Source: Naegleria gruberi (lineage: Eukaryota). Taken from it: DNA of 64,000 nt. The translations under genes were made by a program, and so were the position numbers. The notes under the pieces are model-generated. The model did no database searches, was not told where the DNA came from, and was given only the letters and a program-made list of their open reading frames with translations. Within the stretch, counting starts at the first letter, position 1. The number at the start of each line of letters is the position of its first letter. The stretch lies in NCBI GenBank assembly GCA_000004985.1, contig GG738912.1, one strand, 5' to 3'. Of the stretch, positions 25,811 through 64,000 are shown in pieces.

Positions 25811-26027
25811 AACTAATAAACATGAAGCAACATTTTCTTGCAACTCAACCTCTCATTACTAATTAAGCCAATTGGGGATTGATATTAATTTTCAAACAAT
25901 AACAAAAACTTCACTAGTACTTTACTGTTCTGATCCTTCTTACTCATGTTAATAAAAACCAAACTTTCAAACACTTTCTCTTCTCCACGATTTGTCCAAA
26001 ACCAAAATCATATGGCTCGCCACGTTA

Positions 26028-26098
26028 CCGTCTCGGGAGGAATCGAACCTCCGTCAATGGATTCAAAGTCCACTATGCTACCATTACACCACGAGACG
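26028..26098 (-). tRNA. tRNA-Gln, anticodon UUG.
   Basis: Minus-strand sequence CGTCTCG-TG-GTGT-AATGGTA-GCAT-A-GTGGA-CTTTGAA-TCCAT-TGAC-GGAGG-TTCGATT-CCTCC-CGAGACG-G. It has a perfect 7-bp acceptor stem, a GG-containing D-loop, a TTCGATT T-loop, and TTG in the anticodon loop. No intron. Confidence 0.8.
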
Positions 26099-26362
26099 AG
26101 CACATTAAGGTTGATTATAATTTAGTTATTACACTCATGACCATTTTCAATCTGTACTGTATTTGCGTTTCATGTCCCTTTGCTAAATTACATTGTATAA
26201 GAAAGGACTTGGAACATATTGCCATTTACAATTCAAAACGTAGAAACATTTTTTCTTGCTCTTCCTCATTACTTATTAAGGCAATAGAAGATTTGGCGCC
26301 TTTAAAATTCACACTTTCAAACAATTTTTCACAAACAAAAAAACAACAACACCACAACCAAT

Positions 26363-28600: not shown

Positions 28601-30513
28601 TCAGGTTAATGACATTTTATACCAACAATTGATTTCTTCTAATTTTTTTTCAATAGAACTCAAAGTCAAATGTTCTTGTAAAGTTTCAACAAACGTTTCA
28701 CAATTGCGCAAAGTAGTGTTTGCTTGATGGGTGTTACCAAATACTTTTTGTTTGATTACTGACATCTTACCTTTAACAAAGTATACCTTCTCAGTCAATT
28801 CATGCAATTTTTCCCACATTTCAGAATTTTCCTCTGGTTGACTGAGTGAAATCTGATTGTTACTGAATGTGAATTTTTCACTGAAGAATGTTGACCTACT
28901 CACTACATCATGTACATTAACAGTAAACACGCCGTCTTGGTCAACTCTGCATTCAACACATATTTTATGGTTAGAGGCAGGCTTTTGATCAATTTTTATG
29001 ATTGAATTGGTTAGTAATTCTAACATTGAGCTAATTTCAGATTCTCCCTCTCTGAAGGTCAAATTAATCTCTTTCGTTTCGTCTGATGAATTTGTAACTG
29101 CCAATAGTTTTTTACAAGGCAAAGGTGTTCCCTTTTCCAGAACCTTAATTAAGGAATTATTTTGATATTCCTTAATTCGAATAGTTCTTGAAAGACATTC
29201 AGTAATAGGAATGGCTTGTTTTTGATAAAGATCATGAGCCAAGTAGGCAGCTCCATAACTAACGATATAAATTATGTCACTATTTTGTGGTCTAGTAATT
29301 GTCTTTAACAAGTCAACTCACTGTCAAGTTATTAAATCTTACTTACAACTCCAGGTAGTTCATCTTGCACCCAATCTTTCACAAATGGAATAAGAGATGA
29401 TCCTCCAACCATAAGAACCTCATTAATATCACATCCAAGTTCTTTAAATTTTGAAATTAAGGTCTGGACCCTTTTTTGGAACGCCTCCTCACAATCTCTC
29501 TTAAATTGCTCATAATTCACAGAAATAATCAAAGATAAATCATTCTCAGGAATCTCAATACTAAAGTATTCAACATTTCGTCTAGTTGAACATAAGGTTT
29601 CTTTCAAAATTCTTGCCTTTGCACTCAACTTGTGTTTAACTTCTTTCTTTAAATTATTCAACTGAGATGTCAATGATTTTTCTTCGAGTGTCATGGAAGA
29701 TGCTCCAAACCAAACAGGTTTAATGTAATTTTGGAAAACCAAATTATCAACATCAACACCTCCCAAAGTAGAATCTCCCTCAACCCATTTCACAATAAAT
29801 TCCAATTGACTATCATGATTTTTACAAACTTGAATGAGTGAAATGTCCAAAGTTCCACCACCAAAATCAAATACCAAGTAATTACCTTCCCCTCTTTGAG
29901 GATCTTTCTTAAAATAGTAATAGGCAGCTGCGGATGGTTCTGGTAATAATTTCAAAACCTTAATGTTTGATTTTCTAGCTGCTTCCAAAGTTGCATTCTT
30001 TTGGAAAACTCCAAATTCAGCTGGAACTGTAATGACTGCTGGAATTTCTTGATCTTTTCTAAATACGGTTACATTTTCAAGAATTTTTTGAGCTACCAAT
30101 TCTGGAGAAATGTCAAGAAACTTTCCGTTTTCAAATACGAAACGACATGTGGCAAGTTGGTTCTCTTGATTAGCAACTATTTTGTAATCTAATTTCTTTT
30201 CATTTTCTTGAATGACGGCCACTTGATTGTCTTTTCTATCCAAACATTAAGAATAGTCAAAGTTTCGTCAACTAACTTACCTTTTACCAATGATTCGTTT
30301 AGTTTCTGTAGCGTAGAGAACACCATTAACATCTTCCAATTCTCCAACACCAGTTTGAAATGATTCTCCGTTTATACAGCTTACATTCACAACAGAGTTT
30401 TGGAAATTACATGATCCTTGTGAAATATATTTCGTATATCCAAATTCATCAATGTACGAAACAATGGTTGTGCTAGTACCTAGATCAATACCAATACACT
30501 TAATATCACTCAT
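28601..30513 (-). CDS. Divergent Hsp70-like protein (A). Three exons: 30281..30513, 29347..30235 and 28601..29302, with introns at 30236..30280 (45 nt) and 29303..29346 (44 nt).
   Basis: Motifs IGIDLGTSTTIVSY, …IIGKR|KDNQVAV…, AVITVPAEF, LLPEPSAAAYYY, LVFDFGGGTLDISL, LGGVDVD, LMVGGSSLIPFV and …NSDIIYIVSYGAAYLA are kept in frame by GTAAGT donors and AG acceptors. Joins ORFs 30277..30654, 29332..30243 and 28601..29311. Confidence 0.7.
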
Positions 30514-32243: not shown

Positions 32244-34058
32244 ATGATCACCCCAATCTTAGTTGGTATCGATTATGGAACTACCAATACCAAAGCAAGC
32301 ATTCGTGAAGAATACATCTGTAACCAACCTAAATGCATTGAATTTGTAAGTGGTAAAAACTATCTTTCATCAGAGATTGCCATCAACAAGAAAGATAAAT
32401 CTTGCATTGTTGGCTTGGAGGATGGCGAATCAACATATTACAAGATTGCCGAATCCAAACGATTGATTGGCAGAGCCTACAAGTCTGTAATGAATAAGGA
32501 AGATTTTAGTACAAGACTTGGTTACCATGTTGCAAATGTTGATGGAATGGCAAACATTAGAATCAACTCAACCACAGATGGTAGCAATGATGTTGAAATT
32601 ATTGATATCGATCCAAGATTAGTTACTGCTGACATTCTTAAAAAAGTCAAAAAGCATATCATTGATACCAACAACTATCCAGATGATACAATTGTTCAAG
32701 CTGTGGTTACTGTCCCAGCTAATTATGGATATAGTCAGAAATCTGCAACAATGGAAGCTGCCGAGTTGAGTGGATTGCAAGTTCTACTGTTAATCCCAGA
32801 ACCAACAGCAGCTGCACTTGCTTTCTTAGATTCCAAGAAATTCTCTGATGGTTATTATCTTGTAATTGACTTTGGTGGTGGCACTCTCGATCTCTCACTT
32901 GTCCATCTGGAAGGTAAGAAAGTCATTGTAAAGAAAGTGTTTGGTAACATGTTTTTGGGAGGAGGAGATGTCGATCAAGCCATTGCAGAAGTGTTGAAAA
33001 CCAAGATTGACCCAGCACTTGAAATTCCAGTTCAGATTGAGAACATCTTTAGTAAGACTACAGAAATTGTCAATTTCAACAATGCTATTCTAAAGAAAAA
33101 ATCCAAAACACTCAAGGAAATGCTGAGCGAAGGAACCAACGAAGAAATTTCTTTGAGTATTAATTTGAAAGGTTATAGTGGTATGAAAATTGTCAATCTG
33201 TCATTTTCCAAACAAGAACTTTGTGCAGTTTTGAATTCAAAGTTTAGAGAACCTTTTGAAAAGGTCTTGAAAGAATGTAAGAATGGAATGGAGTGTGAAT
33301 TAGATGGTATTCTCCTTGCTGGTGGCTCATCTAAACTACCAACCATTGAATCTTGGACTAGAAATGTGTTTGAACAAGTTACAATTCATACACATGCACA
33401 TGATGTTCAAACTCTTGTTGCAAGAGGAGCTTTCTTAGCAGCAGAGTCAATCAGAAATGGCACAAATCAACTAGAGAATTTGCAAGTGATGGAAGAAGTA
33501 ACCGCAACCCATTTGGGAATTGAGACAAAGAATGTGGTGACTGATAAAGTAGAATTCACAACATTAATTCCAATGCACAGCCCTTTAAAAACTTCCTTTA
33601 CAAAGACCTTTACAAACGTTGTTGATGATCAAGAGAAAGCGAAAATTAGAGTATTGGAAAATTTGTCAGAATCTTTTGAAGATTCTACTGAAATATCCAG
33701 TTTGGTAATCAATATCATGAAAAGAAAGAAGGGAGAAACCAAGATTGATGTTACTTTTTCTGTTGATTTGAATGGTATCCTTCAGGTTGCCATTGTAGAA
33801 CAAGGAAGAGATTCTGATAATAAGCACGAAATCAAAACTACGTTGACCAATTTGTGGACTCCTGAACAAATAGAAGAGTTTCGTAAAAGAAAACATTTTA
33901 GTGTCCAAGAGGTAACTAAGGTTGCAGCACAACAAGTACCAAGCTTGAGTCAAAATCTTAGTAGTCAAATTCAATTTGACCTCTTAGATGAATTATTCAA
34001 AGGTCCAAATAAGCAAGTTCTCATTTTGGATACAGGTGCCAATAAACCATTATTATAA
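32244..34058 (+). CDS. Divergent Hsp70-like protein (C) with both nucleotide-binding and substrate-binding-like regions.
   Basis: VGIDYGTTNTKAS, VVTVPANYGYSQKSATMEAAELSGLQVLLLIPEPTAAALAF, LVIDFGGGTLDLSLV, LGGGDVD, ILLAGGSSKLPTI and VARGAFLAAE. Confidence 0.7.
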   Translation: MITPILVGIDYGTTNTKASIREEYICNQPKCIEFVSGKNYLSSEIAINKKDKSCIVGLEDGESTYYKIAESKRLIGRAYKSVMNKEDFSTRLGYHVANVDGMANIRINSTTDGSNDVEIIDIDPRLVTADILKKVKKHIIDTNNYPDDTIVQAVVTVPANYGYSQKSATMEAAELSGLQVLLLIPEPTAAALAFLDSKKFSDGYYLVIDFGGGTLDLSLVHLEGKKVIVKKVFGNMFLGGGDVDQAIAEVLKTKIDPALEIPVQIENIFSKTTEIVNFNNAILKKKSKTLKEMLSEGTNEEISLSINLKGYSGMKIVNLSFSKQELCAVLNSKFREPFEKVLKECKNGMECELDGILLAGGSSKLPTIESWTRNVFEQVTIHTHAHDVQTLVARGAFLAAESIRNGTNQLENLQVMEEVTATHLGIETKNVVTDKVEFTTLIPMHSPLKTSFTKTFTNVVDDQEKAKIRVLENLSESFEDSTEISSLVINIMKRKKGETKIDVTFSVDLNGILQVAIVEQGRDSDNKHEIKTTLTNLWTPEQIEEFRKRKHFSVQEVTKVAAQQVPSLSQNLSSQIQFDLLDELFKGPNKQVLILDTGANKPLL

Positions 34059-41722: not shown

Positions 41723-43123
41723 TTATTTGAAAACAAGAACAACATTCTTTTCTGCAAAACCACAGTAAAGTTCTCCAGTAGCACTGTCCAAAGCAATTAC
41801 CATTCCACTTCCAGCATGATATAAACCAAACTTGTAAGGACTATTCTCATTCATGAAAGAAGTGAGACAGGTTCCATCTTCCTTCATAGAATCAATACCA
41901 TATTGAACACAATAAATCTTATTAGTATTTGGTTCAAATTGTGGACATTTTTGAGTGTAGGTTCTTTGCTTGTCAAATTTCTTTAAGATTTTTCCATTCT
42001 TGTTAGTTACCAAGATGGTATCTTCATTGATAAGGACAAGTTCGTTATTGACATTAATACCCATACAATCAATTCTGCTCAATCCAAAAACATTGTTTCC
42101 TTGAATGTTTTGTCTCAAAGTCTTGATAATTTTACCAGTGTCAGGTGACAAAAAGTCAACTCCTCCATTTTGAGCAATGTAAATAGTACCATCAACCTTA
42201 TCAACAGCCATACTATAAATCATACCAGTGCCATCATTTTCCCAGAATACCATCTTACCATTTCTAGAAATTTTCACAATGGTTGATGCACAACATCTGT
42301 CAATAACATAAACAAGTGCCTTATCCTTGGTATCATAACAGAGATGCATATTATCTCTGTCTTGAGGTTCCTTGAAGTGATTCTTCAACATTTTAGTCTT
42401 TAAATCAAATTCAAAGAAAGTCCAACGATCAGCAACGAAAATGGTACGATTGACTGGATCAATTGCAAGACCAGCAACTCCAGCAAATTCAAAATTAAAA
42501 TCTTCATTCTCACCCAAAGTACCAATATGATTATAATTTCCACTGAATGGAACAAAACCACCAGAAGAAGCAGCAACAGATGAACCAGAACCACCAGAGG
42601 AAGAACCTGCACTAGTCAACTCTGAAACATCATTAACATGAGATTTGGTCTTGTTTGATGAATTGTGCAATTTCAAGTGATTTTCACACATGTGAGCATT
42701 ACATTGTTTACAATGATGAGTTGCCAAAACTTTCTCTTCATCATCAGTCAAACACTTGTCACAATTCTTTGCAGCAGAAACTTGACTTTCAATTGGAACC
42801 ACTGAAGAAGCATGTGATTTAGTCTTATTGGAAGTATTGTGAAGATTCAAGTGGTTTTCACAAAAGCACATATTACAGCTAGGACAGGAATGAGTAGCTG
42901 GAATAGTTTCGTCTTCATCCTTTAAACATTTATCACAGTTTCGAATAGTGGATGCTGCAGATAATTCAACAAGATCACTAACGTGTGATTTAGTCTTGTT
43001 TGAAGTATTGTGAAGATTTAAGTGATTATCACAATAGTTCATTTTACATTGCTTGCAGTTGTGAGTTGCAGGCACAGTTTCGTTTTCGTCCTTCAAACAT
43101 TTATCGCAATTGACAACTTTCAT
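41723..43123 (-). CDS. Three B-box-type zinc fingers followed by an NHL-repeat beta-propeller (TRIM-NHL-like architecture without a RING).
   Basis: Three copies of CDKCLxDExExVxATHxCxxCxxxxCxNHLxLHNxSNKTKSH (B-box-like C/H spacing), a Ser/Gly linker, and a C-terminal region with NHL-like repeats (…TIFVADR…, …YVIDR…, …IYIAQNG…). Confidence 0.6.
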   Translation of the reverse strand: MKVVNCDKCLKDENETVPATHNCKQCKMNYCDNHLNLHNTSNKTKSHVSDLVELSAASTIRNCDKCLKDEDETIPATHSCPSCNMCFCENHLNLHNTSNKTKSHASSVVPIESQVSAAKNCDKCLTDDEEKVLATHHCKQCNAHMCENHLKLHNSSNKTKSHVNDVSELTSAGSSSGGSGSSVAASSGGFVPFSGNYNHIGTLGENEDFNFEFAGVAGLAIDPVNRTIFVADRWTFFEFDLKTKMLKNHFKEPQDRDNMHLCYDTKDKALVYVIDRCCASTIVKISRNGKMVFWENDGTGMIYSMAVDKVDGTIYIAQNGGVDFLSPDTGKIIKTLRQNIQGNNVFGLSRIDCMGINVNNELVLINEDTILVTNKNGKILKKFDKQRTYTQKCPQFEPNTNKIYCVQYGIDSMKEDGTCLTSFMNENSPYKFGLYHAGSGMVIALDSATGELYCGFAEKNVVLVFK

Positions 43124-43442: not shown

Positions 43443-44735
43443 ATGGCAAACTTTTCATTTAGTTTGAATGGTGTATTGAACAATCTACCAAGCTCCTTGT
43501 CATCCATTGGATACAAGGCTAAGAATGCACTCAGTAGAAAGTTAAAAAGTTCAAACGAAGGTAAACGAAACCCACATGCACCTTCAGATAACGATTTTGA
43601 TGAAAATGACTCATCAAATAATAACAATAATAAGAAACCATCCTCTTCATCATCCAACAGATTGGATAATTCATCATCTTCAAAGGCAACTATCAAATCG
43701 TCCAATAAGAAACCAAGAGTAAAGAAACCGAAAGTTGAAGTCAAGTATTGTGATAAATGCTTGAAAGATGAAGAAGAAAAAGTCCAAGCCACTCATTATT
43801 GCTCTGGTTGTTCCATGAATTATTGTGAAGCACACATAAATCTTCACAATTCGGCCAACAAGACGAAAGGTCATGCCGAAAGTGGTCAAGTTTCAAGTCT
43901 AGCTGCTGCACATGTTCCACTTGCTCTCTTACCAGACTTGCAACAAATTTGTGTGCTTCCCAATCCAGATAGCCCATTTTCATGCACAATTGACCATGGT
44001 TATGGTTCTCTATTCGTTCTTGATGGAGATATGTTTATGGAATATGATTTAACAACTAAAGAATTGGTAAATCATTTCAGAGAACCTCAAGAAAGACGTG
44101 CAGTTCGTGTCTGTTACGATTCCAATGATGATACTCTCATTTATGTACTTGACAGATGTGCTTCACATGATATTGTAAAAACTTCAAGAGATGGAAAGAT
44201 GATTCATTGGCAATTGGATGATCAATCACCAATTCGTGATATGAGTGTCGATCCAATTGATGGAACTATTTATACAGTTCAAAATGATGGAATTGTTTGT
44301 GTGAAGGATGGAAAAGTTTCGTCCACATTGAGAGAAAACATTAATGGAAATAACATGTTTGTGGACACCTATGACAATATTTGTGGAGTGACAACTAATC
44401 ATGAAAATAACTTGATAGTTGTTTCGAATAGATATATTATTACTTGTAATAAGAAGGGAAAGATATTTAGCAAAGTTGAAAAGGTCAGTTCTGGTGCAAG
44501 TAAGAGAATTCATTTGGATCCAAGTGGAGAACACATGTACTTTATTGGAGACAGTGGAATTGAGTCAACCAAATTGAATGGAACTTGTCGTACAGAATTT
44601 AGAAATGACAAGGTTGACTATGATCATAAATTTGAAGTTTCTAGAGGAGAAGGAATAGACATGGCCATTGATTTCACATCTGGAGAAGTTTATGTTGTCA
44701 ATCCTCACAAATCAAAAGTTCAAGTATTCAAATAA
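43443..44735 (+). CDS. Single B-box-type zinc finger + NHL-repeat protein, a paralog of the 41723 gene transcribed divergently from it.
   Basis: N-terminal S/N-rich low complexity, then YCDKCLKDEEEKVQATHYCSGCSMNYCEAHINLHNSANKTKGH and a C-terminal region homologous to that of the 41723 gene (…LIYVLDRC…, …GTIYTVQNDG…). Confidence 0.6.
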   Translation: MANFSFSLNGVLNNLPSSLSSIGYKAKNALSRKLKSSNEGKRNPHAPSDNDFDENDSSNNNNNKKPSSSSSNRLDNSSSSKATIKSSNKKPRVKKPKVEVKYCDKCLKDEEEKVQATHYCSGCSMNYCEAHINLHNSANKTKGHAESGQVSSLAAAHVPLALLPDLQQICVLPNPDSPFSCTIDHGYGSLFVLDGDMFMEYDLTTKELVNHFREPQERRAVRVCYDSNDDTLIYVLDRCASHDIVKTSRDGKMIHWQLDDQSPIRDMSVDPIDGTIYTVQNDGIVCVKDGKVSSTLRENINGNNMFVDTYDNICGVTTNHENNLIVVSNRYIITCNKKGKIFSKVEKVSSGASKRIHLDPSGEHMYFIGDSGIESTKLNGTCRTEFRNDKVDYDHKFEVSRGEGIDMAIDFTSGEVYVVNPHKSKVQVFK

Positions 44736-46725: not shown

Positions 46726-48381
46726 TTAATACAAGAATTCTGCAAACAATGGCAAGTGATCAGAGCCATGATCTTCATCAGGAATACTTGATTTTGGAAC
46801 GAATTCCAAACAAGGTCCACTATCTTTCACTTGCAAACTTGGAGAATGCCATATGTAATCAACTATTGAATTTCTACCAGTCGTTCCACAACAAGTCCAA
46901 AACTCCTGAACTGTATCATGACTCTTTTGCAGTGGAATACTTTCACAAGCTTCAATTAATTGTATTGGTTTCTCGTGTGGACTTGTATTGAAATCTCCAA
47001 ACCAAATAATACTTGTCTTTTGAGGATCAGCAATTTTTCCAATTTGATTCAAAATTTCATTCACTTGTTTTTCTCTTGGGCCAGTATCACGAGGTTGGAA
47101 TGTCAAATGACAATTTATAATACAGAAGAATCGACCTTTCACTCTATCCCTTGCAATAACGTATTGAAATACTTCAGGATACTCCTTCACTAAGGTCTTT
47201 TCTCCCTTATTGAATATTTCAAATTTGGTATTTCTAATAGCAAGTATCAAGCCGTCCTTCTTTGGATAATTCTTATACGAATGGTAAACTGAAAATCCTT
47301 CTTGTTCCAGAAAGAATTGAATTTGAGAAGCATGTTGATTATCAATTTCTTGTAGACCAATTATATCAAATCTTCTCTCCTTCAAGACGGAAAATATTTT
47401 ATACTTTCGTATTTCCCAATCCAGATATTTCTGATTGGTAATATTCGAATATCTACTCAAAGAAATGTAACATTGTGCCAAAATATTATAGGAACAGACC
47501 AGAATAGTTGGTGGAGGAAAGGACAGATTAGTTTGTGGTAGATTTTCTGATCTTGATCCAATGATGACCTGATTATTCTGGACTGGAGAAACATGAAAAT
47601 GTTGAAATTGCTTTCCAGAATTTTGAGGATTGTAAAAATTTTGAGGAGGATAATTTTGAATTGCTTGATTTGGATAATTTGCAATTGGTTGTAAAATTTT
47701 GGGATTTGCATATTGAATTGGAGGAGGTTGATTTTGTTGGTGGTGTTGTTGATGACTATTAGAAACTGAACTAGTTCCTTTCTGATTATTACCATAATGA
47801 GCTTGATAGGTAGTTTGATTTTTGGCAGGTTTTTGACTACTTGACTGATTAGTAGAATCAATCTGCTTCTTCTTCTTCTCATTCACCCCATGACATTCCT
47901 TCCACACAGGTTCATCACTTCCATGTATAAAACAATATCTATGCCATCTTTCCTTATTATAGCATTTTTCACCATATTTGCACGGATGATGAAACTTGAA
48001 TTTGTGTGAAAATTCCTTATTTTCATCCAGTAATGATTTACAATTTAGTCCATACTTGCACGGATGATAAAATTGAAAATTATGATTGGAATCATTGGTG
48101 AGTTTACAATTTTCCCAATTTGGACATCTCAAAGAAACTAATTGTTCATCATCAATCCCTTGAATTACATTCGAAACATCTGAAAAAAAGTGTTTGGCCT
48201 TTCGAATAATTTCTTTCGAAAAATTAGTTTCATGTTTAAAAGTTAAATTGTGTTTCTTATTGGTGAGGAGAGAACAATCCTTCCCGAATGGACAGGTATG
48301 GATGAAATAATGTGTATGATTGGAGTCAAATAGATTATAACAATTTTCATCGTATTGACAAACTGTAAGTTTTGATGACAT
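46726..48381 (-). CDS. Protein with five PBZ-type (poly-ADP-ribose-binding) zinc fingers, a Q/N/P-rich linker, and a C-terminal CCR4/nocturnin-type endonuclease-exonuclease-phosphatase (EEP) domain.
   Basis: PBZ-like CxxxxxC-x7-HxxxFxH motifs: CQYDENCYNLFDSNHTHYFIH, CPFGKDCSLLTNKKHNLTFKH, CPNWENCKLTNDSNHNFQFYH, CKYGLNCKSLLDENKEFSHKFKFHH and CKYGEKCYNKERWHRYCFIH. EEP motifs VCSYNILAQCY…W.IR…DIIGLQEIDN, …GDFNTSP and …GSDHLP. True ATG at 48381 (caaaaaaaATG). Confidence 0.65.
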   Translation of the reverse strand: MSSKLTVCQYDENCYNLFDSNHTHYFIHTCPFGKDCSLLTNKKHNLTFKHETNFSKEIIRKAKHFFSDVSNVIQGIDDEQLVSLRCPNWENCKLTNDSNHNFQFYHPCKYGLNCKSLLDENKEFSHKFKFHHPCKYGEKCYNKERWHRYCFIHGSDEPVWKECHGVNEKKKKQIDSTNQSSSQKPAKNQTTYQAHYGNNQKGTSSVSNSHQQHHQQNQPPPIQYANPKILQPIANYPNQAIQNYPPQNFYNPQNSGKQFQHFHVSPVQNNQVIIGSRSENLPQTNLSFPPPTILVCSYNILAQCYISLSRYSNITNQKYLDWEIRKYKIFSVLKERRFDIIGLQEIDNQHASQIQFFLEQEGFSVYHSYKNYPKKDGLILAIRNTKFEIFNKGEKTLVKEYPEVFQYVIARDRVKGRFFCIINCHLTFQPRDTGPREKQVNEILNQIGKIADPQKTSIIWFGDFNTSPHEKPIQLIEACESIPLQKSHDTVQEFWTCCGTTGRNSIVDYIWHSPSLQVKDSGPCLEFVPKSSIPDEDHGSDHLPLFAEFLY

Positions 48382-48414
48382 TTTTTTTGACAAGTGAATT
48401 CTGACAGATAAAAA

Positions 48415-49302
48415 ATGGTAGCATCAAGCGAAGAAGAACACGATCAGGAAACATCAACAACAGCTGCATCACTTTCGATATCAAGTGTTGTTGGTGGAAT
48501 TAAAAATTTACTTGGTGAATTATTTGACAAGGCATCAACTGAAGAAATTGATCATGTAATTGCATTGACAGGATTTAATGCATTGAAAGCTTATACATGT
48601 TTATTGGAAAAGTATCCTCCACCTACTGTTCCGGTGTCAAATGTTGTGGAACAGCAGCCATCTGTCAGTAGTCAAAATATTCCCCTGACACAACAATATT
48701 TTCAACCATCACAATTACCAATTCAACATGTTCATCAAAATATTGATCCGATGATGATGAGCCAATTTATGATGCAAAATCAATTTATGCCTGTCGGATG
48801 TCAACAATTCAATCAAATTCCTCAATTTCAACAACAGCAACCTATGAATCAATCTACATGTATTTTGATGAATGATGGAATGGGAAGACAATATTATATG
48901 ATTTCTGATCCAAGTCAAATGTCAAGTAATAATTCAATGATGGTCAGCAGTGGAATTACAACTTCCAACCCAACTCCTCAACCATCTTCTACATCAATTA
49001 CAGCATCTACTTCAATTGCAACTCAAACATCTACTTCTAATACACCTGCCACATCAACGCAACCTGCCACCACTCATGTCACCATTGACAAGAAGAAGAA
49101 ATGTAAAGATTGGGACAAATGTACTCAAACTGGCGACCAAACACACGTTGAGAAATTCTTCCATCCATGCAGAAATGGATCTCATTGCAAGAATATTGAA
49201 AATGTCATTCATCAAAATAGATTTGTTCATCCTTGTAAAGATGGAAAGCAATGTAAGAAGAAGGATGATAATTTACACAATATTATGTTTACTCATAAAT
49301 AA
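48415..49302 (+). CDS. UBA/CUE-like N-terminal domain, a Q/M/S/T-rich low-complexity region, and three C-terminal PBZ-type zinc fingers.
   Basis: EEIDHVIALTGFNALKAYTCLLEKY is UBA-like. PBZ motifs CKDWDKCTQTGDQTHVEKFFH, CRNGSHCKNIENVIHQNRFVH and CKDGKQCKKKDDNLHNIMFTH. ATG at 48415 with aaaaATG context, only 33 bp from the divergent start at 48381. Confidence 0.55.
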   Translation: MVASSEEEHDQETSTTAASLSISSVVGGIKNLLGELFDKASTEEIDHVIALTGFNALKAYTCLLEKYPPPTVPVSNVVEQQPSVSSQNIPLTQQYFQPSQLPIQHVHQNIDPMMMSQFMMQNQFMPVGCQQFNQIPQFQQQQPMNQSTCILMNDGMGRQYYMISDPSQMSSNNSMMVSSGITTSNPTPQPSSTSITASTSIATQTSTSNTPATSTQPATTHVTIDKKKKCKDWDKCTQTGDQTHVEKFFHPCRNGSHCKNIENVIHQNRFVHPCKDGKQCKKKDDNLHNIMFTHK

Positions 49303-49369
49303 AATCAATGCTTTTGCTTGTCAAATTGTGAATTCACTTGTCAAATCATCGTTTTACCTGTCAAAAAAA

Positions 49370-51100
49370 ATGTTACCTTATCGTCCGCCTATTGTTCAGC
49401 CAATTCAACAGTTAATTCCGGTGTATTCCTACATGCCATCAACTTCATCATCGCCTGCCACTCCAACCAATGATCAATCACATCAATCAACTGCCACAAA
49501 TCAAAATAATCAGCAAAGTATTTGCAAATTTGGTCCAAATTGTCCCAACTATGACCAATGTACCTCTCTTCATCCATGCCGTTACGGAGAAGATTGCAGA
49601 AGAATTTCAAGAGTTGTTAACAAGACTCAGAAATTACAAGACATTGTTCACTGTTCCAAATGTTTCCATATTTGTAAATGGGGTGAGAAGTGCAAATATT
49701 TGAATGATGAAGAACATGTAAATATGTTTCTTCACACGTGTACTAAATCAAATTGTAAAGATGAAGTTCACAAAGAGAGATTTAGACATAAATGCAAATA
49801 TGGAAAAAATTGTCGTTCCTTAGATGGAAAATATGAAAATTGGGAACATTATGTCAAGTTTATTCATCCTAGGACTAATGGAGTTATGAGACATGTAGAA
49901 AAACAAATGTATTATCTATTTTCTGAAATATCTAATGATGAAAGCAATTCAAAAACTGCTCAATCTGACATTCCTGGTTTGACACTTGTAAAGAAGAGTA
50001 CACTCAAACCACAAGTGAAAGATAGAAAACGATCTGCCAAATGTGAAATTTCCACAATCGATGGTAAATCCACAGAGTATTATTTCATTGGGTATGAGAA
50101 GGGTGCTGGAAATTCGTCAACTTCAAAAGTCGTTTGTTTTAAAGAGACTGGAAAGGGAGTTTTTGAAGGTCATATTAAGGTAGTTGCAGAATCTAGTTGT
50201 GTATTTGATGGAAATGCAAAGATTGAACAACCTTGGTATCATTCAAAAGTTAATGTTTATAGAAATACTGTCATTAGTCAAGTATTTGATGAAATTTTGA
50301 AACAAGGTTTGAATGGAGTGAGCCCAAATGCTACCTATATCGATGTTATGAAATACATGATAGAACAGCATGATATTCCAATATTTATTGTTGGAGGAGC
50401 TGTCAGAGATGTCATTCGAGAAGTGATTGTTGAAAAAAAGACCAATGCCTTACAAATTATGAATAATATTAAGGATATTGATATTGGATTTGGTTGTGAT
50501 CCACAGACATTTCATGGACGCCTCACTCGAAAATATAAATCAGGTGTTCCAATTCCTGGACCTCGTGGACTAGTTCAAGTAGGAAGCTCCAATGGTTCTG
50601 ATCTATTCCTGGAAGGTAAAGCCATTAATGGTTTAAATAATGATAATAAGAGTGTGAAAGCACAAATTGCTCAATGTTATGGAACTAATCTGAGAGGAGA
50701 AAACATTTGTAGAGATTTCACATGTAATTCTCTTTGGTATGATCCAATCAATAAGTGCATTATTGATACTATTGGAAATGGGCAAGGAATTAAGGACGTA
50801 ATTTCAAAAAATTTACGAATTCCTGTAAAACCAAGAGATTGGGAATTTTGGGTTTCTGGCAATCCAACAAAGTTGATGAGATTTTACAAATTCCTTTTGA
50901 AGGGATATTCTGCAGATGCCAAAACTAAATCATTCATAATTGAACAAGTTAAAAGTGGTAAATTTATTAGTGATATGGAAATTAGAACTCAATACACAAA
51001 AGGAATTGGAAAAGCCAACAAAGCAAGGTTGGAGAATTTGTTGAGAAGTGATTTTGGTGATCAGTTTTACAATAATTATTTCGCTAATCATATTAAATAA
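49370..51100 (+). CDS. N-terminal PBZ-type zinc fingers fused to a class-II nucleotidyltransferase head domain (CCA-adding enzyme / poly(A)-polymerase PcnB-type).
   Basis: PBZ-like CKWGEKCKYLNDEEHVNMFLH and CKYGKNCRSLDGKYENWEHYVKFIH plus partial copies. NTase motifs FIVGGAVRDVI…DIDIGFG and RDFTCNSLWYD (class-II GGAVRD / RDFT[IV]NA). Start is taken at the ATG at 49370 (caaaaaaaATG) inside ORF 48950..51100. Confidence 0.6.
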   Translation: MLPYRPPIVQPIQQLIPVYSYMPSTSSSPATPTNDQSHQSTATNQNNQQSICKFGPNCPNYDQCTSLHPCRYGEDCRRISRVVNKTQKLQDIVHCSKCFHICKWGEKCKYLNDEEHVNMFLHTCTKSNCKDEVHKERFRHKCKYGKNCRSLDGKYENWEHYVKFIHPRTNGVMRHVEKQMYYLFSEISNDESNSKTAQSDIPGLTLVKKSTLKPQVKDRKRSAKCEISTIDGKSTEYYFIGYEKGAGNSSTSKVVCFKETGKGVFEGHIKVVAESSCVFDGNAKIEQPWYHSKVNVYRNTVISQVFDEILKQGLNGVSPNATYIDVMKYMIEQHDIPIFIVGGAVRDVIREVIVEKKTNALQIMNNIKDIDIGFGCDPQTFHGRLTRKYKSGVPIPGPRGLVQVGSSNGSDLFLEGKAINGLNNDNKSVKAQIAQCYGTNLRGENICRDFTCNSLWYDPINKCIIDTIGNGQGIKDVISKNLRIPVKPRDWEFWVSGNPTKLMRFYKFLLKGYSADAKTKSFIIEQVKSGKFISDMEIRTQYTKGIGKANKARLENLLRSDFGDQFYNNYFANHIK

Positions 51101-51142: not shown

Positions 51143-54100
51143 TTAATTTTTTCTATTCCTTTTTGGTTTAGAAACAAATGTTGGGACTCTTGTGAGTGAT
51201 TGTTTTTCATATTCAAACTCTATCGCGGAAAAATGGTTATATTGTTCACCAAAGTATCCTCTAGCTTCTTGGTTTCCATTTTTAGCAGCTTTCAACAACC
51301 AGAGTGTTCCTTGTGTTACATCTGTTTCACATAATAACTTTCCCAACGCCAACTCTGCATCTGAATTTTGTTGTTGAGCAGCTTTGAGCAACCATGAATG
51401 TGCAAGCTTAATGTTTTTCGGGACAACCTTATCAAGTCCATACATATAAATCATTCCAAGAGAATATTGTGCATTTGAATTTCCTTGATTAGCAGATTTG
51501 CAATACCACTCAAAAGCAAGTGAATAATTGGGTGTTTGGATGATATTAAGTGTATGATGATAAATGCAAGCTACTTCATATTGGGCTTCATTATTTCCAA
51601 GTTCAGCAGCTTTTTGATAGTAATCCCATGCTTTTTGATTATCCTTTAATTCTTTATAGAGATATCCTAAACGAAAGAGTGCTTCTGAATTCTTCACATC
51701 AGATTCTACTGCTTTTAGATACCATATAATGGCCTCATGTTTATCCAATAAAACACCATCACCCAGCTCATACATTTCTCCAATATCATATTGTGAATCA
51801 GAATCATTGAATTTTGTAGATGCTTCCAAATACAATTCGTGTGCTTCTTGATAATTACCCTTATTAAAAAACATTCTAGCCACATTTCTAAGAGCTTCAA
51901 TATGCGTACTTATTATTTCAGCTTCTCTAAAAATAAGTTTTCTATATTCTTCATCAATTTCCATTCTTTTTAAATTCATATTATTACCTAATATAATGTG
52001 TTCGCCAGAAACTAAGATATCTGTAGTAATAGTAGAAAGCTTTTGCTTGGATAAATCGAGTGCTTTTTGGTAAAGTTTAAATGCCAACAATTCATTACTT
52101 GATATTCCATTATCACCATCTTCAAGCATTGATGCAACATAATTAATGGCAGGAATATAGTTACTATCATATACTTTCTTAAATAGCTCAAAAGTTTCGG
52201 TATTGTTTGTTTTGGAATAATGAATAGCTTGTTGGAATAATTTCTCCCCTTTATCATTACTAACTTCCAAAATCATATCCAATTGACTTGCAGAATATAA
52301 AACTCCATATTCCACGCCTTCCATTTCTAAAGTATTAACGTTCATCTCATATTGGTTTCTTCTTTGAGCATCTTCTATAAAATAAGAAATCAATTTTCTT
52401 TTTTGAGAATCATTATTTAACACTAAAGAGTAGAGAGTGTAATTATTTTGCTCTGATTTCTCCATTTCTAAAATGTGAGAGGAGAAGTTTGGGATTAGAA
52501 TAAATCTGCTTTTGTCTTTGATTAAATGGCCCATTTTTAAACCAAATTGTGTGACAGATTTTAGAGAGGAATTTAGAGAAATAATATGCACCTCCTTGTC
52601 CTTAAGAAATAATACAAAAAATCTCCAAAAAAGGTCCATCATTTCCGAGACCATTTGAACTCGCTGTTTCTTTTTGTTAATCTGTTTGAAAATAGTTTGA
52701 AATAATTCCTTATAAATATCTTCCATCCTTTTTTGATAATCATTTGGTTTCGTGTTGTTTTTGAAAATATTTGCTATCTTGTACTTGATAAATGTGATTA
52801 AATGTTGTCTGTCATCTACACGTGCTATTTGAGAATTTGGGTCTTTAAACTCTAATTTTTGAGAAACTAACAATTGCATACTATCATATAATTTACCAAC
52901 TAGAGAAACACTGCGCCTCAATGGACCATGTTTGTTCTTGTGGTAGTGTGGAAAGCCAGGGAATTTTTCAAGTAGTTCTAAATCTTGTGCATTTACAGCA
53001 ACACTGTAGTTGCCTTTTTTGGGAGCGTCGATAGCCCTGTTGATGAGAGTACATAATCTTTCCATGTTATTCCAGTATTTTCGTGACCATTGATTTCCAT
53101 AAAAATCAGCAAACAAATGACGAATTCCAATCAAGTCTTTGAATATATCAGGATCGAATGATCGTGTCTCATTGTAGTCGTCATCAAAAGATCCTGGATC
53201 GAACTCTACTAATGATTCTACTAGTTCGTTATCCCAACATGCAAAATATTGATCTCCATCTAGATCAGATCCTGCAATCATATTTGTTATTGGTCTACTT
53301 CCTTTTGTAGGAAAAACAATAACATCGTAAAGAAAATTCAATTCAGGAATGTTGACTGCCTCTAATTTTCTCAGGTCACCACGATGTAAGCATGGCTCTT
53401 TAGTGACAATCACAGTATTCTCAATTACATTCTTCTTCTTTGGATCATTTAGAGAGGAAACTTGAATAAATATTTGACCTTCTTTGAGTACTCCGAAAGG
53501 ATCTGCTATTCCGTACAACCTTCTAGAACTGTAACAAGGAATTCTCAAGGAGAGTATTTGGTTTCTGTAGGGGCCTGTCAGGAAAGCAAGCTTTTTGCTT
53601 TTTAGAATGGAAAGAACGTTAAGAGAGGCATAGTCTCCTTGTTTTACGTACTGATCAAAAACCTTGTCAATGTCCGATTCTGAAATATAGTTTTTCATCA
53701 AATTTTCAATATGTTTACAGGCCTTTTGGTTTAGTATTTCGAATATCTTTCCTTGTTTTGTTTCATCTTCACACCCTTCTAAAATGTGCATAATTGTCGA
53801 ATTGATTCTAGCAAAATCACAGGGGCTTGAATAACCTACGATGCATAAATTATTAATTATATCATCATCAGTGTTTGGGTGTTCAATTTTCATCATTGAT
53901 TTCCTTAGCACTAAATGGTGACCATACACCTTTTCCGCATTTGGATGGATGTAAACCATGCCTTTGGCTCCTCTAAATCTTATTTGGTATGCACAGGGAA
54001 GATATTCATTGACTAGAAACTCTACTCCATCATTTTCTTCGTAGATACCATCTTCATCCATCGATTGTTTGCTCTGGTATTTCAATAAATTTTTAGATTT

Positions 54101-55297
54101 ACGAACAATTTCATAAACTTTCATAGCCAATTCAAGAGAAATAAATCCACATCCATCGGTGAAAAGTCCCTCATCATTAATAACAGTGTATTCTGAAACT
54201 CCAATAGTAGGAATAACAGGAGTATTAAATAAAGCCAGTCTTAAACTTTGCTTTAATTTGTTATTCTCAAAATAAAGATCCCTGTTCAATGTATCTGGAA
54301 TGGCCCATGTTTTTACATCATGTATTGATAGGGAAGAATTGTTTGGAAGTTTGGAAAGATCAGGACACATGTAAATAAATCGATAAGAATGCATTCCACT
54401 CGTATTTTGACACAGTTTCTGGAATGTAAATCCAGCAATATGTAAAGGCTCTTCTCTTTCTATATATGGCTCTATTAGCCTGAATGATTGGTTATCCATT
54501 AACACTCTGCTAATGTGCTTTTGGTCTTTCATTAATTTCAATGTTTCCTCATCGAATTTTCCTTCCTTGAATTGATTTAAATATTGTCTCAATAATACTA
54601 TATCTCCATGATCCTCTGATTTTGATTCCATAGCCACTTGATCCTTCAATTCAATATTATTTAAAATTTCAGGGTGCTCTCCAGTAGATTCAAGAATCAT
54701 TTGAGATTTGAAACCCATTCTCAAAAAGCTAAATCCAACATTCAACACTGTATTCACACCAAATTTTTGTCTAAACCTACTCTGTAGCCATCTATCTTGT
54801 TGTGAGCTGTTGAATCGAATGGCAAGAATGGGTGATATCTTTGGTTTGTAAAAACAATATAAGGTTGCTGTTCTAGTCCTAAACATTGTCTCTGATTCGT
54901 CCAATTCTTCTGTTGTTTGCTTACTTGGAGATGAAAGGTTTAAATTCTGATGATCCTCTTCCTTCTCTGTTATTGTTGCTAACAACCACCGATGAAGAGC
55001 CTCTAATCCTATCGGATAGGCAATCACTGCCATCCTAGAAACTCTCTTTAATATTTCATAGCGATCGACGAAGGACATTCCACAATACTTTTCCCCTCTC
55101 ACATTTTTGAAATTAAATTCCAAATATTTGGTACAATCATCAAAATTTCTAATGATCGGAATGGATTCAATCATGTAATAAGTTGCCAATAAATCCTTTA
55201 CGTAATTTTCATCTTGTCTATTCATAAACTTTAACTCTTCAAGTTGTTGAATCTTTTCAAGCTTTGAGAACCCAGAAACAAAAGACAATACGGACAT
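51143..55297 (-). CDS. Eukaryotic cellular RNA-dependent RNA polymerase (RDR family, about 930 aa) fused to a C-terminal array of Sel1-like (TPR-like) repeats, about 450 aa.
   Basis: RdRP catalytic motifs …IVTKEPCLHRGDLRKLEAV… and …AGSDLDGDQYFACWD…. The C-terminus has at least 6 Sel1-type units (e.g. NSNAQYSLGMIYMYGLDKVVPKNIKLAHSWLLKAAQQQNSDAELALGKLL, AIIWYLKAVESDVKNSEALFRLGYLY). Single 1384-codon ORF. Confidence 0.8.
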   Translation of the reverse strand: MSVLSFVSGFSKLEKIQQLEELKFMNRQDENYVKDLLATYYMIESIPIIRNFDDCTKYLEFNFKNVRGEKYCGMSFVDRYEILKRVSRMAVIAYPIGLEALHRWLLATITEKEEDHQNLNLSSPSKQTTEELDESETMFRTRTATLYCFYKPKISPILAIRFNSSQQDRWLQSRFRQKFGVNTVLNVGFSFLRMGFKSQMILESTGEHPEILNNIELKDQVAMESKSEDHGDIVLLRQYLNQFKEGKFDEETLKLMKDQKHISRVLMDNQSFRLIEPYIEREEPLHIAGFTFQKLCQNTSGMHSYRFIYMCPDLSKLPNNSSLSIHDVKTWAIPDTLNRDLYFENNKLKQSLRLALFNTPVIPTIGVSEYTVINDEGLFTDGCGFISLELAMKVYEIVRKSKNLLKYQSKQSMDEDGIYEENDGVEFLVNEYLPCAYQIRFRGAKGMVYIHPNAEKVYGHHLVLRKSMMKIEHPNTDDDIINNLCIVGYSSPCDFARINSTIMHILEGCEDETKQGKIFEILNQKACKHIENLMKNYISESDIDKVFDQYVKQGDYASLNVLSILKSKKLAFLTGPYRNQILSLRIPCYSSRRLYGIADPFGVLKEGQIFIQVSSLNDPKKKNVIENTVIVTKEPCLHRGDLRKLEAVNIPELNFLYDVIVFPTKGSRPITNMIAGSDLDGDQYFACWDNELVESLVEFDPGSFDDDYNETRSFDPDIFKDLIGIRHLFADFYGNQWSRKYWNNMERLCTLINRAIDAPKKGNYSVAVNAQDLELLEKFPGFPHYHKNKHGPLRRSVSLVGKLYDSMQLLVSQKLEFKDPNSQIARVDDRQHLITFIKYKIANIFKNNTKPNDYQKRMEDIYKELFQTIFKQINKKKQRVQMVSEMMDLFWRFFVLFLKDKEVHIISLNSSLKSVTQFGLKMGHLIKDKSRFILIPNFSSHILEMEKSEQNNYTLYSLVLNNDSQKRKLISYFIEDAQRRNQYEMNVNTLEMEGVEYGVLYSASQLDMILEVSNDKGEKLFQQAIHYSKTNNTETFELFKKVYDSNYIPAINYVASMLEDGDNGISSNELLAFKLYQKALDLSKQKLSTITTDILVSGEHIILGNNMNLKRMEIDEEYRKLIFREAEIISTHIEALRNVARMFFNKGNYQEAHELYLEASTKFNDSDSQYDIGEMYELGDGVLLDKHEAIIWYLKAVESDVKNSEALFRLGYLYKELKDNQKAWDYYQKAAELGNNEAQYEVACIYHHTLNIIQTPNYSLAFEWYCKSANQGNSNAQYSLGMIYMYGLDKVVPKNIKLAHSWLLKAAQQQNSDAELALGKLLCETDVTQGTLWLLKAAKNGNQEARGYFGEQYNHFSAIEFEYEKQSLTRVPTFVSKPKRNRKN

Positions 55298-61886: not shown

Positions 61887-63443
61887 CTAATGAGTACTTT
61901 CAAATATTACTTTGGGTTTCTTAGATTTTGATTGTACATAAAGGATGCCATCTGTATCAAGTCCAAACGTGAGTGAAATATTACTAGAAGATAACTCTGT
62001 TATCTCAGTAATCTTTACAATTCCAATCAGCTCATTATCACTTGCTTTTTTCGAATCACCTTCATATATTTTGAGTGAAACTGCTTTCTTTTGATTGTTT
62101 GGATTTGGCGGGAGGGAGAATTCTCTTTCTGAACTACAGGGAATGGAATTGTCCTTTTTAAGGAGTATCATTAAATCTCCTCCTATACTAATCTCACATC
62201 CAATGTTTCGGCTTGTAACTTCAATGAGGAGAAGATCTTTTTCAAAATTTGCTAATATACCACCTTGGATAGCAGCTCCAAAAACAACTGGATTTGGATA
62301 AATAGGTCTTGGATGGATGGATTTACAAAAATAGGTTGTAATGAGTTGTTTTAGTTTTGGTATTTCACATCCTCCTCCAATAATTATTGCATCGGCTATT
62401 TCTTCCTTGGAACAATTTGCTCTTCGAATGACCTTATCAGCAAGGGATAAACATTTTGAAAAGAAATCAGTATTCAAATCCTCAAATTTAGAACGAGTTA
62501 GCACAATCTCAAAATCAATTCCATCCATTAGTGATTTGATAGATAGTTGTGTTTGCAATTCAGTAGATAATTTCTTCTTGGCTTCCTCGCATGCAACTTG
62601 CATCTTCCTCATTGAAACAGGATTCTCCTGTAGTCGTTTCTTGAATAATTTATAAAATTCCTCACAACAATAGCTCACTAAACTTTCGTCTAGCTTTGCA
62701 CCACCATGGTTAGGGAGACCATCACTACTTTTTGTATCCACAACTCCATTGTCCACCAAGAACACTGAAGCAGAGCATCCTGACCTTCCCAAATCAAATA
62801 CGAAAACCCTCTTTTCCCCTCTGTATTTCCAAATATACTGGAAGCAAGCTGCAGATGTATCATGAACGAGTCTACTGTTTGTCACTCCAATACTTTCCAC
62901 GACTTTCTTCATTTCAATTCTCTGATGATTCGAAAAGTAATTCGGAATTGAAACCACCAAATCCGTCACTGCTCGTTTCAAATATCTTTCAGCATCCTCC
63001 TTCAATTGTTTAAGAATTAATCCAATCATTTCATTAACAGATATTTCCTCATACTCCTCCTCTTTACAAACACTCAAACGAATTGTCTTGTCCTGCTTTC
63101 TAATAATTCTGAATGGCCACTCATTACTTTTCAATATTAATTCGTCATCTTCATCATCACAAGCCTTTCCAATTAATTGTTTAAAATCCCAGAATAAACA
63201 ATATGGATCCTCCGATTTACTATAAAACTCCAAAGCCTCCTCTCCAATTAATATTCTACTATTACTCATAGATGAGTCATCCAATAATGAAGAGGAAGAA
63301 ACAAAGGCTATACACGTTGGAGTTTCATAATTTCCCAATTTATTTGGAATGTATTCAACATGATCTTCGAGATAGACAGCCACTCGACAATGTGATCCTC
63401 CGAAATCAATGGCAACAATTCCGTGATTGAGATGAGAAAACAT
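61887..63443 (-). CDS. Divergent Hsp70-like protein (D).
   Basis: VAIDFGGSHCRVAV (phosphate-1), VFVFDLGRSGCSASVFLV (DLGGGTFD-like) and AIIIGGGCEIPKL (VGGSTRIP-like). True ATG at 63443 (aaaaaaaATG). Confidence 0.6.
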   Translation of the reverse strand: MFSHLNHGIVAIDFGGSHCRVAVYLEDHVEYIPNKLGNYETPTCIAFVSSSSLLDDSSMSNSRILIGEEALEFYSKSEDPYCLFWDFKQLIGKACDDEDDELILKSNEWPFRIIRKQDKTIRLSVCKEEEYEEISVNEMIGLILKQLKEDAERYLKRAVTDLVVSIPNYFSNHQRIEMKKVVESIGVTNSRLVHDTSAACFQYIWKYRGEKRVFVFDLGRSGCSASVFLVDNGVVDTKSSDGLPNHGGAKLDESLVSYCCEEFYKLFKKRLQENPVSMRKMQVACEEAKKKLSTELQTQLSIKSLMDGIDFEIVLTRSKFEDLNTDFFSKCLSLADKVIRRANCSKEEIADAIIIGGGCEIPKLKQLITTYFCKSIHPRPIYPNPVVFGAAIQGGILANFEKDLLLIEVTSRNIGCEISIGGDLMILLKKDNSIPCSSEREFSLPPNPNNQKKAVSLKIYEGDSKKASDNELIGIVKITEITELSSSNISLTFGLDTDGILYVQSKSKKPKVIFESTH

Positions 63444-64000
63444 TTTTTTTAATGGTTGATCCAATTTTAAAAGTTTACAATTTTAAATAATTTAATTGTT
63501 TGTGATATATGATGATACTAAATTCTGATGATTGTAAGAATGCATTCATTTTGTATTGATATTAAAGAAAATTTTTAATAATTAAGTGTTGTAAACAACT
63601 GATACCAAAATGGATTGGAACTAACTTTGGGAATTTTAATTTACGCATGAATTTCACAATTCAAGGTTATTTGCATCATTTTTCGGTTACTCAGTATTTT
63701 ATACAATGAATTGTAAAATGATCAAATAGTTTACAATAGCCGATTGCAACTTTGAAATATAACTTCCAAAATGATTTAAAGATGAAAGCAAGCATACACC
63801 ATGAATCTGTATTATTCAACATCTCTTTCTGAATCTACCATAGAAATCAAGGTCATCACAGGTCTTGCAGGAAGTGACTGATTTCAAGCCTTCTTTAAAA
63901 CAATCAGAATTAATAATATAATTAAAACATTAATAAACAAAATTATTTTTAATGGAACCAGGTTAGTAATTGTTTGAGATTTCTCTAATTGAGCTGTACC

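Follow-up and report, generated by a model that had tools for sequence, protein, structure and literature searches.

Do three neighbouring genes of Naegleria gruberi, in which arrays of PBZ-like zinc fingers are joined to an EEP phosphoesterase, to a nucleotidyltransferase (NTase) or to no catalytic domain, act together on sites marked with poly(ADP-ribose) (PAR)? The genes lie in a 64-kb stretch of contig GG738912.1 (assembly GCA_000004985.1), hereafter the window, which has a GC content of ~33% and densely packed long open reading frames (ORFs). Gene 1 (46726..48381, minus strand; 551 amino acids, aa) encodes an EEP phosphoesterase at the C-terminus, preceded by a low-complexity Q/N/P linker and, at the N-terminus, by five PBZ-like fingers. 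Gene 2 (48415..49302, plus strand; 295 aa) encodes a helical N-terminal region, a low-complexity linker and three C-terminal PBZ-like fingers. In gene 3 (49370..51100, plus strand; 576 aa), a low-complexity N-terminus leads into one CCCH and four CCHH fingers, after which come an SH3-like barrel and the head and neck of a class-II NTase. The reading favoured here, with a probability of roughly 0.5, is that the fingers would dock the EEP and the NTase, as 3'-end enzymes, on ADP-ribosylated sites, and that the three genes would form an ADP-ribosylation reader-effector set specific to Heterolobosea and a few other protists. It draws on the domain identities, the intact active sites, the conserved architectures and linkage, and the recurrent fusion of the NTase to readers and writers of PAR.

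The strict finger pattern C-x5-C-x6-8-H-x5-H was scanned in the six-frame translation of the window and gave nine matches, eight within genes 1 to 3 and the ninth in a stop-interrupted frame. When longer middle spacers were allowed, the three genes were found to contain five, three and five fingers, in line with the count of 13 or more given in an earlier note on this DNA. The same note had assigned the strict pattern to all of them, which holds for the eight strict matches and fails for the fingers with longer spacers, for one CCCH finger and for a short variant (C-x4-C-x4-H-x5-H), the last two in gene 3. The fingers are contiguous, with H-P-C joints and a 22-residue period, and are mostly spaced C-x5-C-x7-H-x5-H. 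The C-x5-C and H-x5-H pairs are retained in 11 of the 13, the exceptions being the CCCH finger and the short variant, and the middle spacer measures 7 residues in seven fingers and 11 in two, with single fingers at 6 and at 18. The gene 1 array spans 47923..48360 (minus strand), with fingers at 48298-48360, 48232-48294 and 48064-48126, one of the form C-x5-C-x11-H-x5-H at 47986-48060 and one with the canonical PBZ spacing, C-x5-C-x6-H-x5-H, at 47923-47982. Gene 2 carries three contiguous C-x5-C-x7-H-x5-H units with H-P-C joints at 49102..49296 (plus strand), and the gene 3 fingers occupy 49523..49867 (plus strand), with the CCCH finger at aa 52-68 and CCHH fingers at aa 70-100, 102-122, 124-140 and 142-166. 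This leading CCCH finger (49523-49573; C-x5-C-x5-C-x3-H, a Nab2-like spacing) directly precedes the CCHH array; it recurs in five other proteins of the NTase family and is absent from the EEP and gene 2 proteins. Residue counts over 26 Naegleria fingers, drawn from N. gruberi and N. lovaniensis genes, showed an aromatic residue two positions before the last His (H2-2) in 25, bearing out the aromatic residue noticed earlier at this place. For the C-x-[FY]-G turn, Gly was found at C1+3 in 14 of the 26 and an aromatic residue at C1+2 or C1+3 in 17.

Among proteins of known structure, the fingers are closest to the PBZ fingers of APLF. When the gene 1 fingers were searched as a single sequence against the PDB, the APLF PBZ came out on top (E 0.009), and a profile of the 26 fingers searched against all PDB chains placed APLF (2kqb/2kuo) first at E 1.3e-5, with all four zinc ligands aligned and with PBZ1 and PBZ2 covered end to end, save for one deleted position. 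The next genuine zinc-finger matches were TTP (E 0.01) and Nab2 (E 0.04), making CCCH fingers at least ~1000-fold weaker. In N. lovaniensis and N. fowleri, the orthologous clusters contain PARP catalytic domains to which these fingers are attached. PBZ is known to co-evolve with PARPs and to have been fused repeatedly to effector enzymes and PARP catalytic domains in protists (PMC4245714; PMC5087659). Judged from sequence, the fingers are PBZ-like, a divergent class of the PBZ fold with PAR as putative ligand.

The EEP domain of gene 1 (46756..47493, minus strand) is assigned to the CCR4/Angel/nocturnin clade by both Pfam and PDB matches. The Exo_endo_phos model PF03372 was matched at aa 297-542 with E 1.2e-16 and 61.6 bits (cutoff 24.5), and the PDB matches ANGEL2 (1.5e-10), nocturnin (1.3e-9) and yeast Ccr4 (4.6e-5) extend over the full domain with the motifs aligned, in accordance with the CCR4/nocturnin-like phosphodiesterase proposed earlier. 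The catalytic residues N299, E345, H425, D463, N465, D508, D541 and H542 are intact and align to those of nocturnin and ANGEL2. No match was found in Pfam to the leucine-rich repeats (LRR) that form the CAF1-binding N-terminal part of CCR4 deadenylases; fingers and a low-complexity linker stand there instead. The clade includes deadenylase, 2',3'-cyclic phosphatase and NADP(H) phosphatase activities. As the gene 1 domain is equidistant from CCR4 (deadenylase), ANGEL2 (2',3'-cyclic phosphatase) and nocturnin (NADP(H) 2'-phosphatase), its substrate cannot be read from the sequence.

In gene 3, the class-II NTase head and neck (50264..51097, plus strand) are preceded by a family-specific beta domain, the SH3-like barrel, at aa 201-298 (49970..50263, plus strand), which is retained even in fusions of U-box, PARP and NTase described below. 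The head was matched by the PolyA_pol model PF01743 at aa 338-483 (E 1.8e-8), as expected from the CCA-adding or poly(A)-polymerase (PAP)-type head recognized in the earlier note, and a structure model gave a class-II head and neck at high confidence; no PDB sequence match was obtained by phmmer. The active-site residues are intact and conserved: GGAVRD at 342-347, D369 and D371, E415, and RDFTCN at 448-453. The position of EDxxR (motif D) of the CCA-adding and PAP enzymes, where CTP or ATP is selected, is taken by GNPTK at 497-501, one form of a GNP[ST]K motif invariant across the family. Because the protein ends ~140 residues before the end of the CCA-adding enzymes, the tRNA-holding tail and most of the body are missing. 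A fold search in a viral library returned only generic phage and giant-virus tRNA nucleotidyltransferases. The enzyme is a member of the class-II superfamily and not an orthologue of the CCA-adding enzyme or PAP.

An exhaustive profile search for this NTase gave 1563 cluster representatives at E<=1e-3, of which 369 remained at the stricter E<=1e-10. PBZ-like finger arrays recur in the closer relatives (P0014, P0017/P0157, P0028, P0030, P0054 and P0096), and one protein of the malawimonad Gefionella okellyi (P0023) joins the NTase to ~15 such fingers. WWE is a dedicated reader of iso-ADP-ribose; one relative of the NTase carries a WWE domain (E 3.7e-11) together with one finger, and three clusters combine a U-box, a PARP catalytic domain and the NTase. 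That this NTase has repeatedly and independently been joined to two different readers and to a writer of PAR is, at the level of sequence, the strongest reason for thinking that the family may work in ADP-ribose signalling. More distant members occur in phage polyvalent proteins (PMC5512222), joined to an InPase domain and encoded next to portal and SNF2 helicase genes (L005, 8001-11396), and this fusion fits an active, pyrophosphate-releasing NTase.

Gene 2 has no catalytic domain. Its orthologues are a 507-aa gene of N. lovaniensis (58% identity over the fingers, E 3e-30) and a 494-aa gene of Willaertia, and strong conservation is limited to the C-terminal finger triplet, while a short helical segment is found at the same place in all orthologues (aa 22-66 in gene 2; 48478-48612, plus strand). 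The UBA-like domain previously proposed for this gene was not recovered: no Pfam match, UBA and CUE included, was found at E<=10, and a single-sequence AlphaFold model of the N-terminus showed two helices at low confidence (pLDDT 68) and no confident three-helix bundle. Two N. lovaniensis relatives gave sub-threshold CUE matches (E 0.004 with a score of 17.2, and E 0.044 with 13.9; the cutoff is 21.1), so that the N-terminus may, if anything, be CUE-like rather than UBA.

The linkage of these genes extends to sister species, where it brings in PARPs. The check for orthologues with the same fusions, as suggested in the earlier note, identified finger-EEP and finger-NTase genes in N. lovaniensis, with the gene 1 orthologue (P0012) lying in a cluster whose order is SIR2 with zf-UBP, a 484-aa PARP, finger-EEP, finger-NTase, a second CCR4-like EEP without fingers, a 616-aa PARP, the 507-aa gene 2 orthologue and ubiquitin E1. 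The 484-aa PARP consists of a low-complexity region, four fingers and a PARP catalytic domain, and the 616-aa PARP of a CUE-like helix, at least six fingers and a PARP catalytic domain. The same cluster, with 16 strict fingers, is present in N. fowleri, and in Willaertia the gene 2 orthologue directly follows the NTase gene. The PARP catalytic domains of the Naegleria clusters are closest to PARP15/12/14, then to tankyrase, and have Glu at the catalytic position. N. gruberi was described in 2010 as having one PARP1-clade enzyme and two short H-Y-E PARPs in whose N-termini no functional domain was recognized (PMC2964712), a description that the cluster PARPs fit; these two 'domain-less' PARPs are probably members of the PBZ-like finger class. 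The zf-UBP-fused SIR2 deacetylase and the ubiquitin E1 flank the cluster (L001, 6877-8379 and 19229-21875; L006, 2194-5325 and 15464-17115), and are NAD-consuming and ubiquitin-system neighbours of the PARP genes in N. lovaniensis and N. fowleri. In Willaertia magna, the pair of NTase and gene 2-like genes stands between two guanylate-binding-protein (GBP) genes (L002, 7279-9796 and 16643-19444), a family linked to cell-autonomous immunity in animals.

The adjacency of the three genes may also be explained by local spread of finger-coding DNA, through duplication or exon shuffling, among genes that serve unrelated pathways and are functionally uncoupled. The fingers of genes 1 to 3 cross-match, the genes are differently ordered and oriented in N. 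gruberi and N. lovaniensis, and functional gene clusters are rare in eukaryotes, all of which would fit such an origin. However, the recurrence of the clusters in the Naegleria species and Willaertia means that the linkage has survived rearrangement across two genera (N. gruberi, N. lovaniensis, N. fowleri and Willaertia), and a common pathway is suggested by the way in which the NTase family has independently been joined to other PAR modules. The promoters also speak against uncoupled genes. Genes 1 and 2 are divergent, and their start codons are separated by the 33 bp (48382..48414) reported earlier, while gene 3 is preceded by the intergenic region 49303..49369. The exact 15-mer GAATTCACTTGTCAA is found in only two copies in the 64 kb, one in the divergent spacer (48387-48401, minus strand) and the second in the region upstream of gene 3 (49330-49344, plus strand), 26 bp ahead of its start codon, so that both promoters have it in common. 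In N. lovaniensis, promoters of the finger-EEP/PARP pair and the NTase gene contain a shorter core, AATTCAC[GT]T (L001, 9983 and 13917). GAATTCACTTGTCAA is a candidate shared cis-element, suggestive of co-regulation of the finger genes. Functional uncoupling was judged very improbable.

Several results weigh against docking on PAR and, in part, favour a different ligand. In Pfam, every finger remained below the gathering score of the PBZ model (PF10283; 22.7 bits), with the best single finger at 14.6-15.0 bits, and the whole proteins gave no PBZ match at E<=1, an outcome that the earlier note had named in advance as refuting its PBZ-type assignment. In APLF, Y386/R387 and Y428/R429 after the second Cys provide adenine stacking and phosphate contact (PMC6264785). 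This PAR-contact dyad is mostly missing from the Naegleria fingers, with an aromatic residue at C2+1 in 2 of the 26 and a basic residue at C2+2 in 4 of the 26; the reversed order, basic and then aromatic, occurs in a few. Since the canonical Tyr-Arg dyad is missing in most fingers, PAR binding by them is inferred. Fingers on PARP catalytic domains need not read PAR either: PARP12 and its relative ZAP carry RNA-binding CCCH fingers, and the Naegleria PARP is closest to PARP15/12/14. The 64-kb window itself contained no PARP, macro or PARG gene by tblastn or by Pfam searches of ORFs of at least 180 aa, and local duplication of finger-coding DNA could account in part for the adjacency of the finger genes.

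A serious rival follows from these points, namely that the fingers bind RNA (adenosine or poly(A)) as relatives of the CCCH/Nab2 fingers, and that a deadenylase-like EEP and a tailing polymerase form an ordinary pair for RNA 3'-end turnover with no direct reading of PAR. The nearest relatives of both enzymes would suit it (ANGEL2, nocturnin and CCR4 for the EEP; CCA-adding enzymes and poly(A) polymerases for the NTase), as would the mostly absent dyad, the sub-threshold Pfam CCCH matches (e.g., zf-CCCH_4 at 21.5 against 24.6 bits), the appearance of Nab2 in the profile search, the genuine CCCH finger of Nab2-like spacing that opens the array in gene 3 and five relatives, and the cellular RNA-dependent RNA polymerase (RdRP) gene that adjoins gene 3. 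Against it, the zinc ligands are CCHH and not CCCH in 12 of the 13 fingers, the APLF PBZ leads all other matches by some three orders of magnitude, relatives exchange the finger array for a WWE or PARP catalytic domain, and PARP genes have stayed in the cluster in two Naegleria species. This RNA-binding alternative was judged possible, if rather unlikely. Of the PBZ-type claim, the PBZ-like character was retained, on account of the APLF match, the PARP fusions and the relatives with WWE or with U-box and PARP domains, and the formal Pfam assignment was not.

If the fingers do dock the proteins on ADP-ribose polymers or ADP-ribosylated targets, the makers of these targets would be PARPs, which in the sister species bear the same fingers and belong to the same cluster. 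Gene 1 would supply a catalytically intact, Mg-dependent phosphoesterase of the CCR4/Angel/nocturnin type, gene 3 an intact and divergent class-II ribonucleotidyltransferase consisting of head and neck, with an altered motif D and its own SH3-like barrel, and gene 2 a finger-only adaptor whose small N-terminus is helical and possibly CUE-like. At ADP-ribosylated sites, the EEP and the NTase may then work against each other on a polymer of the ribonucleotide type, at its 3' end. In the proposed order of action, the phosphoesterase would trim or heal the end by removing nucleotides or a 2',3'-cyclic or terminal phosphate, and the NTase would then extend the healed end without a template. RNA is the most likely substrate of the pair; ADP-ribose chains or DNA are less probable. 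Since both enzymes belong to RNA-type families (CCR4/Angel/nocturnin; CCA/PAP class II), end processing is likelier to concern RNA or an ADP-ribose-like end than DNA. The PAR-recruited module for nucleic-acid end processing envisaged in the earlier note is thus upheld in its enzyme assignments, with PAR recruitment as a putative step, possibly under shared regulation, and with DNA ends as the less likely target.

A strict DNA-damage module, in which PAR at breaks recruits the EEP for APE1/TDP2-like cleaning of blocked DNA 3' ends and the NTase for nucleotide addition to DNA ends, would be in keeping with the characterised PBZ proteins, all of which (APLF, CHFR, SNM1A and the Dictyostelium Ku70, Ung, Rad17 and APL) act in the DNA-damage response (PMC5087659; PMC4245714), and with the fusion of PBZ to DNA ligase K in other eukaryotes (PMC6264785). 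It was nevertheless considered improbable: the EEP falls within the CCR4/Angel/nocturnin clade and neither APE1 nor TDP2 was among its PDB matches, the NTase retains the RDFTxN motif and class-II fold of RNA-specific enzymes, and the associated PARP domains resemble PARP15/12/14 and not the DNA-break-activated PARP1-3. In a further reading, ADP-ribose itself, and not RNA, might be the substrate of the GNPxK NTase, which would attach nucleotides to a free hydroxyl of the ribose, with the PBZ-tethered EEP removing the hybrid mark; the acceptor may be protein-, nucleic-acid- or chain-terminal ADP-ribose. Such a role is a decidedly long shot. Were it true, the GNPxK NTase and the EEP would constitute a new writer/eraser pair on top of PARP signalling, old enough to occur in Heterolobosea, in malawimonads and in further protists, and with phage-injected relatives.

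Returning to the reader-effector set, its interest lies in what PARP-downstream proteins have so far been found to do. PBZ, WWE and macro domains serve as markers of such proteins, and the effectors recognized through them belong to DNA repair, to checkpoints or to the ubiquitin ligases. In the present case, several deep eukaryotic lineages appear to have connected readers and writers of PAR with a CCR4-like phosphoesterase and with a whole family of ribonucleotidyltransferases that need no template. Fusions of PBZ to other effectors and to PARPs are well known (PMC4245714). A literature search found no description of PBZ fused to a CCA-adding/PAP-type NTase, a CCR4-like EEP or a deadenylase, in agreement with the earlier impression that these fusions are undescribed. 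Together, the joining of PBZ-like fingers to the EEP and the NTase points to an undescribed enzymatic branch of ADP-ribose signalling. If the fingers read ADP-ribose, PARP signalling would connect with enzymes that remodel RNA 3' ends, or possibly ADP-ribose chains, in a manner unseen in model organisms. The results also indicate that standard hidden Markov models overlook a large class of divergent PBZ-like fingers.

The three genes differ in their database status. The gene 1 product is identical (100% over 551 aa) to an NCBI 'predicted protein [Naegleria gruberi]'. This identity marks the window as N. gruberi nuclear DNA and led to the rejection of a giant-virus or bacterial source, which the low GC content and the crowded long ORFs had at first suggested. 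It emerged from a homology search; look-ups by exact protein gave nothing for genes 1 and 3. No N. gruberi entry was found for genes 2 and 3 in a collection of 5.8 billion proteins, where a homology search with gene 2 gave no match; both genes appear intact and conserved, with clear orthologues in sister species, and are apparently absent from the reference annotation in which gene 1 is present. The best homologues of gene 3 are those of Willaertia magna, N. lovaniensis and N. fowleri (44-46% identity), and its start at 49370 is supported by the N-terminal 'MLP' common to the N. lovaniensis orthologue and by an A-rich Naegleria start context. The start context AAAAAAAATG was considered as a signal common to the finger genes and rejected, being general in Naegleria genes. 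Tail to tail with gene 3, and 42 bp from it, lies the RdRP gene (51143-55297, minus strand; 1384 aa), which encodes a cellular RdRP domain (PF05183, E 2e-78) followed by C-terminal Sel1/TPR repeats; an RNAi-type polymerase thereby stands beside RNA-end enzymes, by coincidence or otherwise. Elsewhere in the window, a divergent gene pair (41723-43123, minus strand; 43443-44735, plus strand) gave weak B-box-type zinc-binding signals below the Pfam cutoff, with an additional sub-threshold NHL-repeat match in the second gene, and resembles TRIM-NHL-like proteins without a RING. Divergent ORFs of the Hsp70 family are located at 28601-30243 (minus strand), 32244-34058 (plus strand) and 61887-63464 (minus strand), the first consisting of two adjacent ORFs for which an intron or a pseudogene is possible. 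Rfam and tRNA scans detected nothing close to the finger genes; an isolated 5S rRNA gene (17650-17768, minus strand; 105 bits) and an isolated tRNA-Gln(TTG) gene (26027-26099, minus strand) are far from them.

Known systems resemble the parts of the locus in some features and differ from them in others. The gene 1 enzyme has the catalytic residues of the CCR4/ANGEL/nocturnin/PDE12 branch, but carries N-terminal PBZ-like fingers and no CCR4-type LRR. Relative to the CCA-adding enzymes and bacterial PAP, the gene 3 NTase has GNP[ST]K in place of the base-selecting EDxxR, a 20-residue insert between GGxVRD and DxD and an added N-terminal SH3-like barrel, whereas the tail and most of the body are gone. 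With the CCCH-finger PARPs (PARP12, PARP7 and ZAP/PARP13), the N. lovaniensis neighbours share the arrangement of finger arrays before a PARP12/14/15-type catalytic domain, and one NTase relative shares the WWE domain; the Naegleria fingers are CCHH, the H-Y-E triad is apparently kept, and in the window genes the catalytic partner, instead of a PARP, is an NTase or an EEP. A further parallel is with the PBZ reader-effectors (APLF, CHFR, SNM1A and Dictyostelium Ku70/APL), which have in common with the Naegleria fingers the C-x5-C...H-x5-H ligands, the aromatic residue at H2-2, the Gly at C1+3, the tandem arrangement and the fusion to catalytic effectors and PARP catalytic domains, and to which the PBZ-PARPs of Entamoeba and Capsaspora and the PBZ-PARG of Adineta may be added. 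In contrast to these, the middle spacer in Naegleria is mostly 7 residues instead of the canonical 6, the Pfam scores are sub-threshold, the Tyr-Arg dyad is mostly gone and the arrays are much longer, with 3-7 fingers per protein and ~15 in the Gefionella relative. Finally, known PBZ fingers are partnered with DNA-repair factors, whereas those of Naegleria are partnered with RNA-type enzymes.

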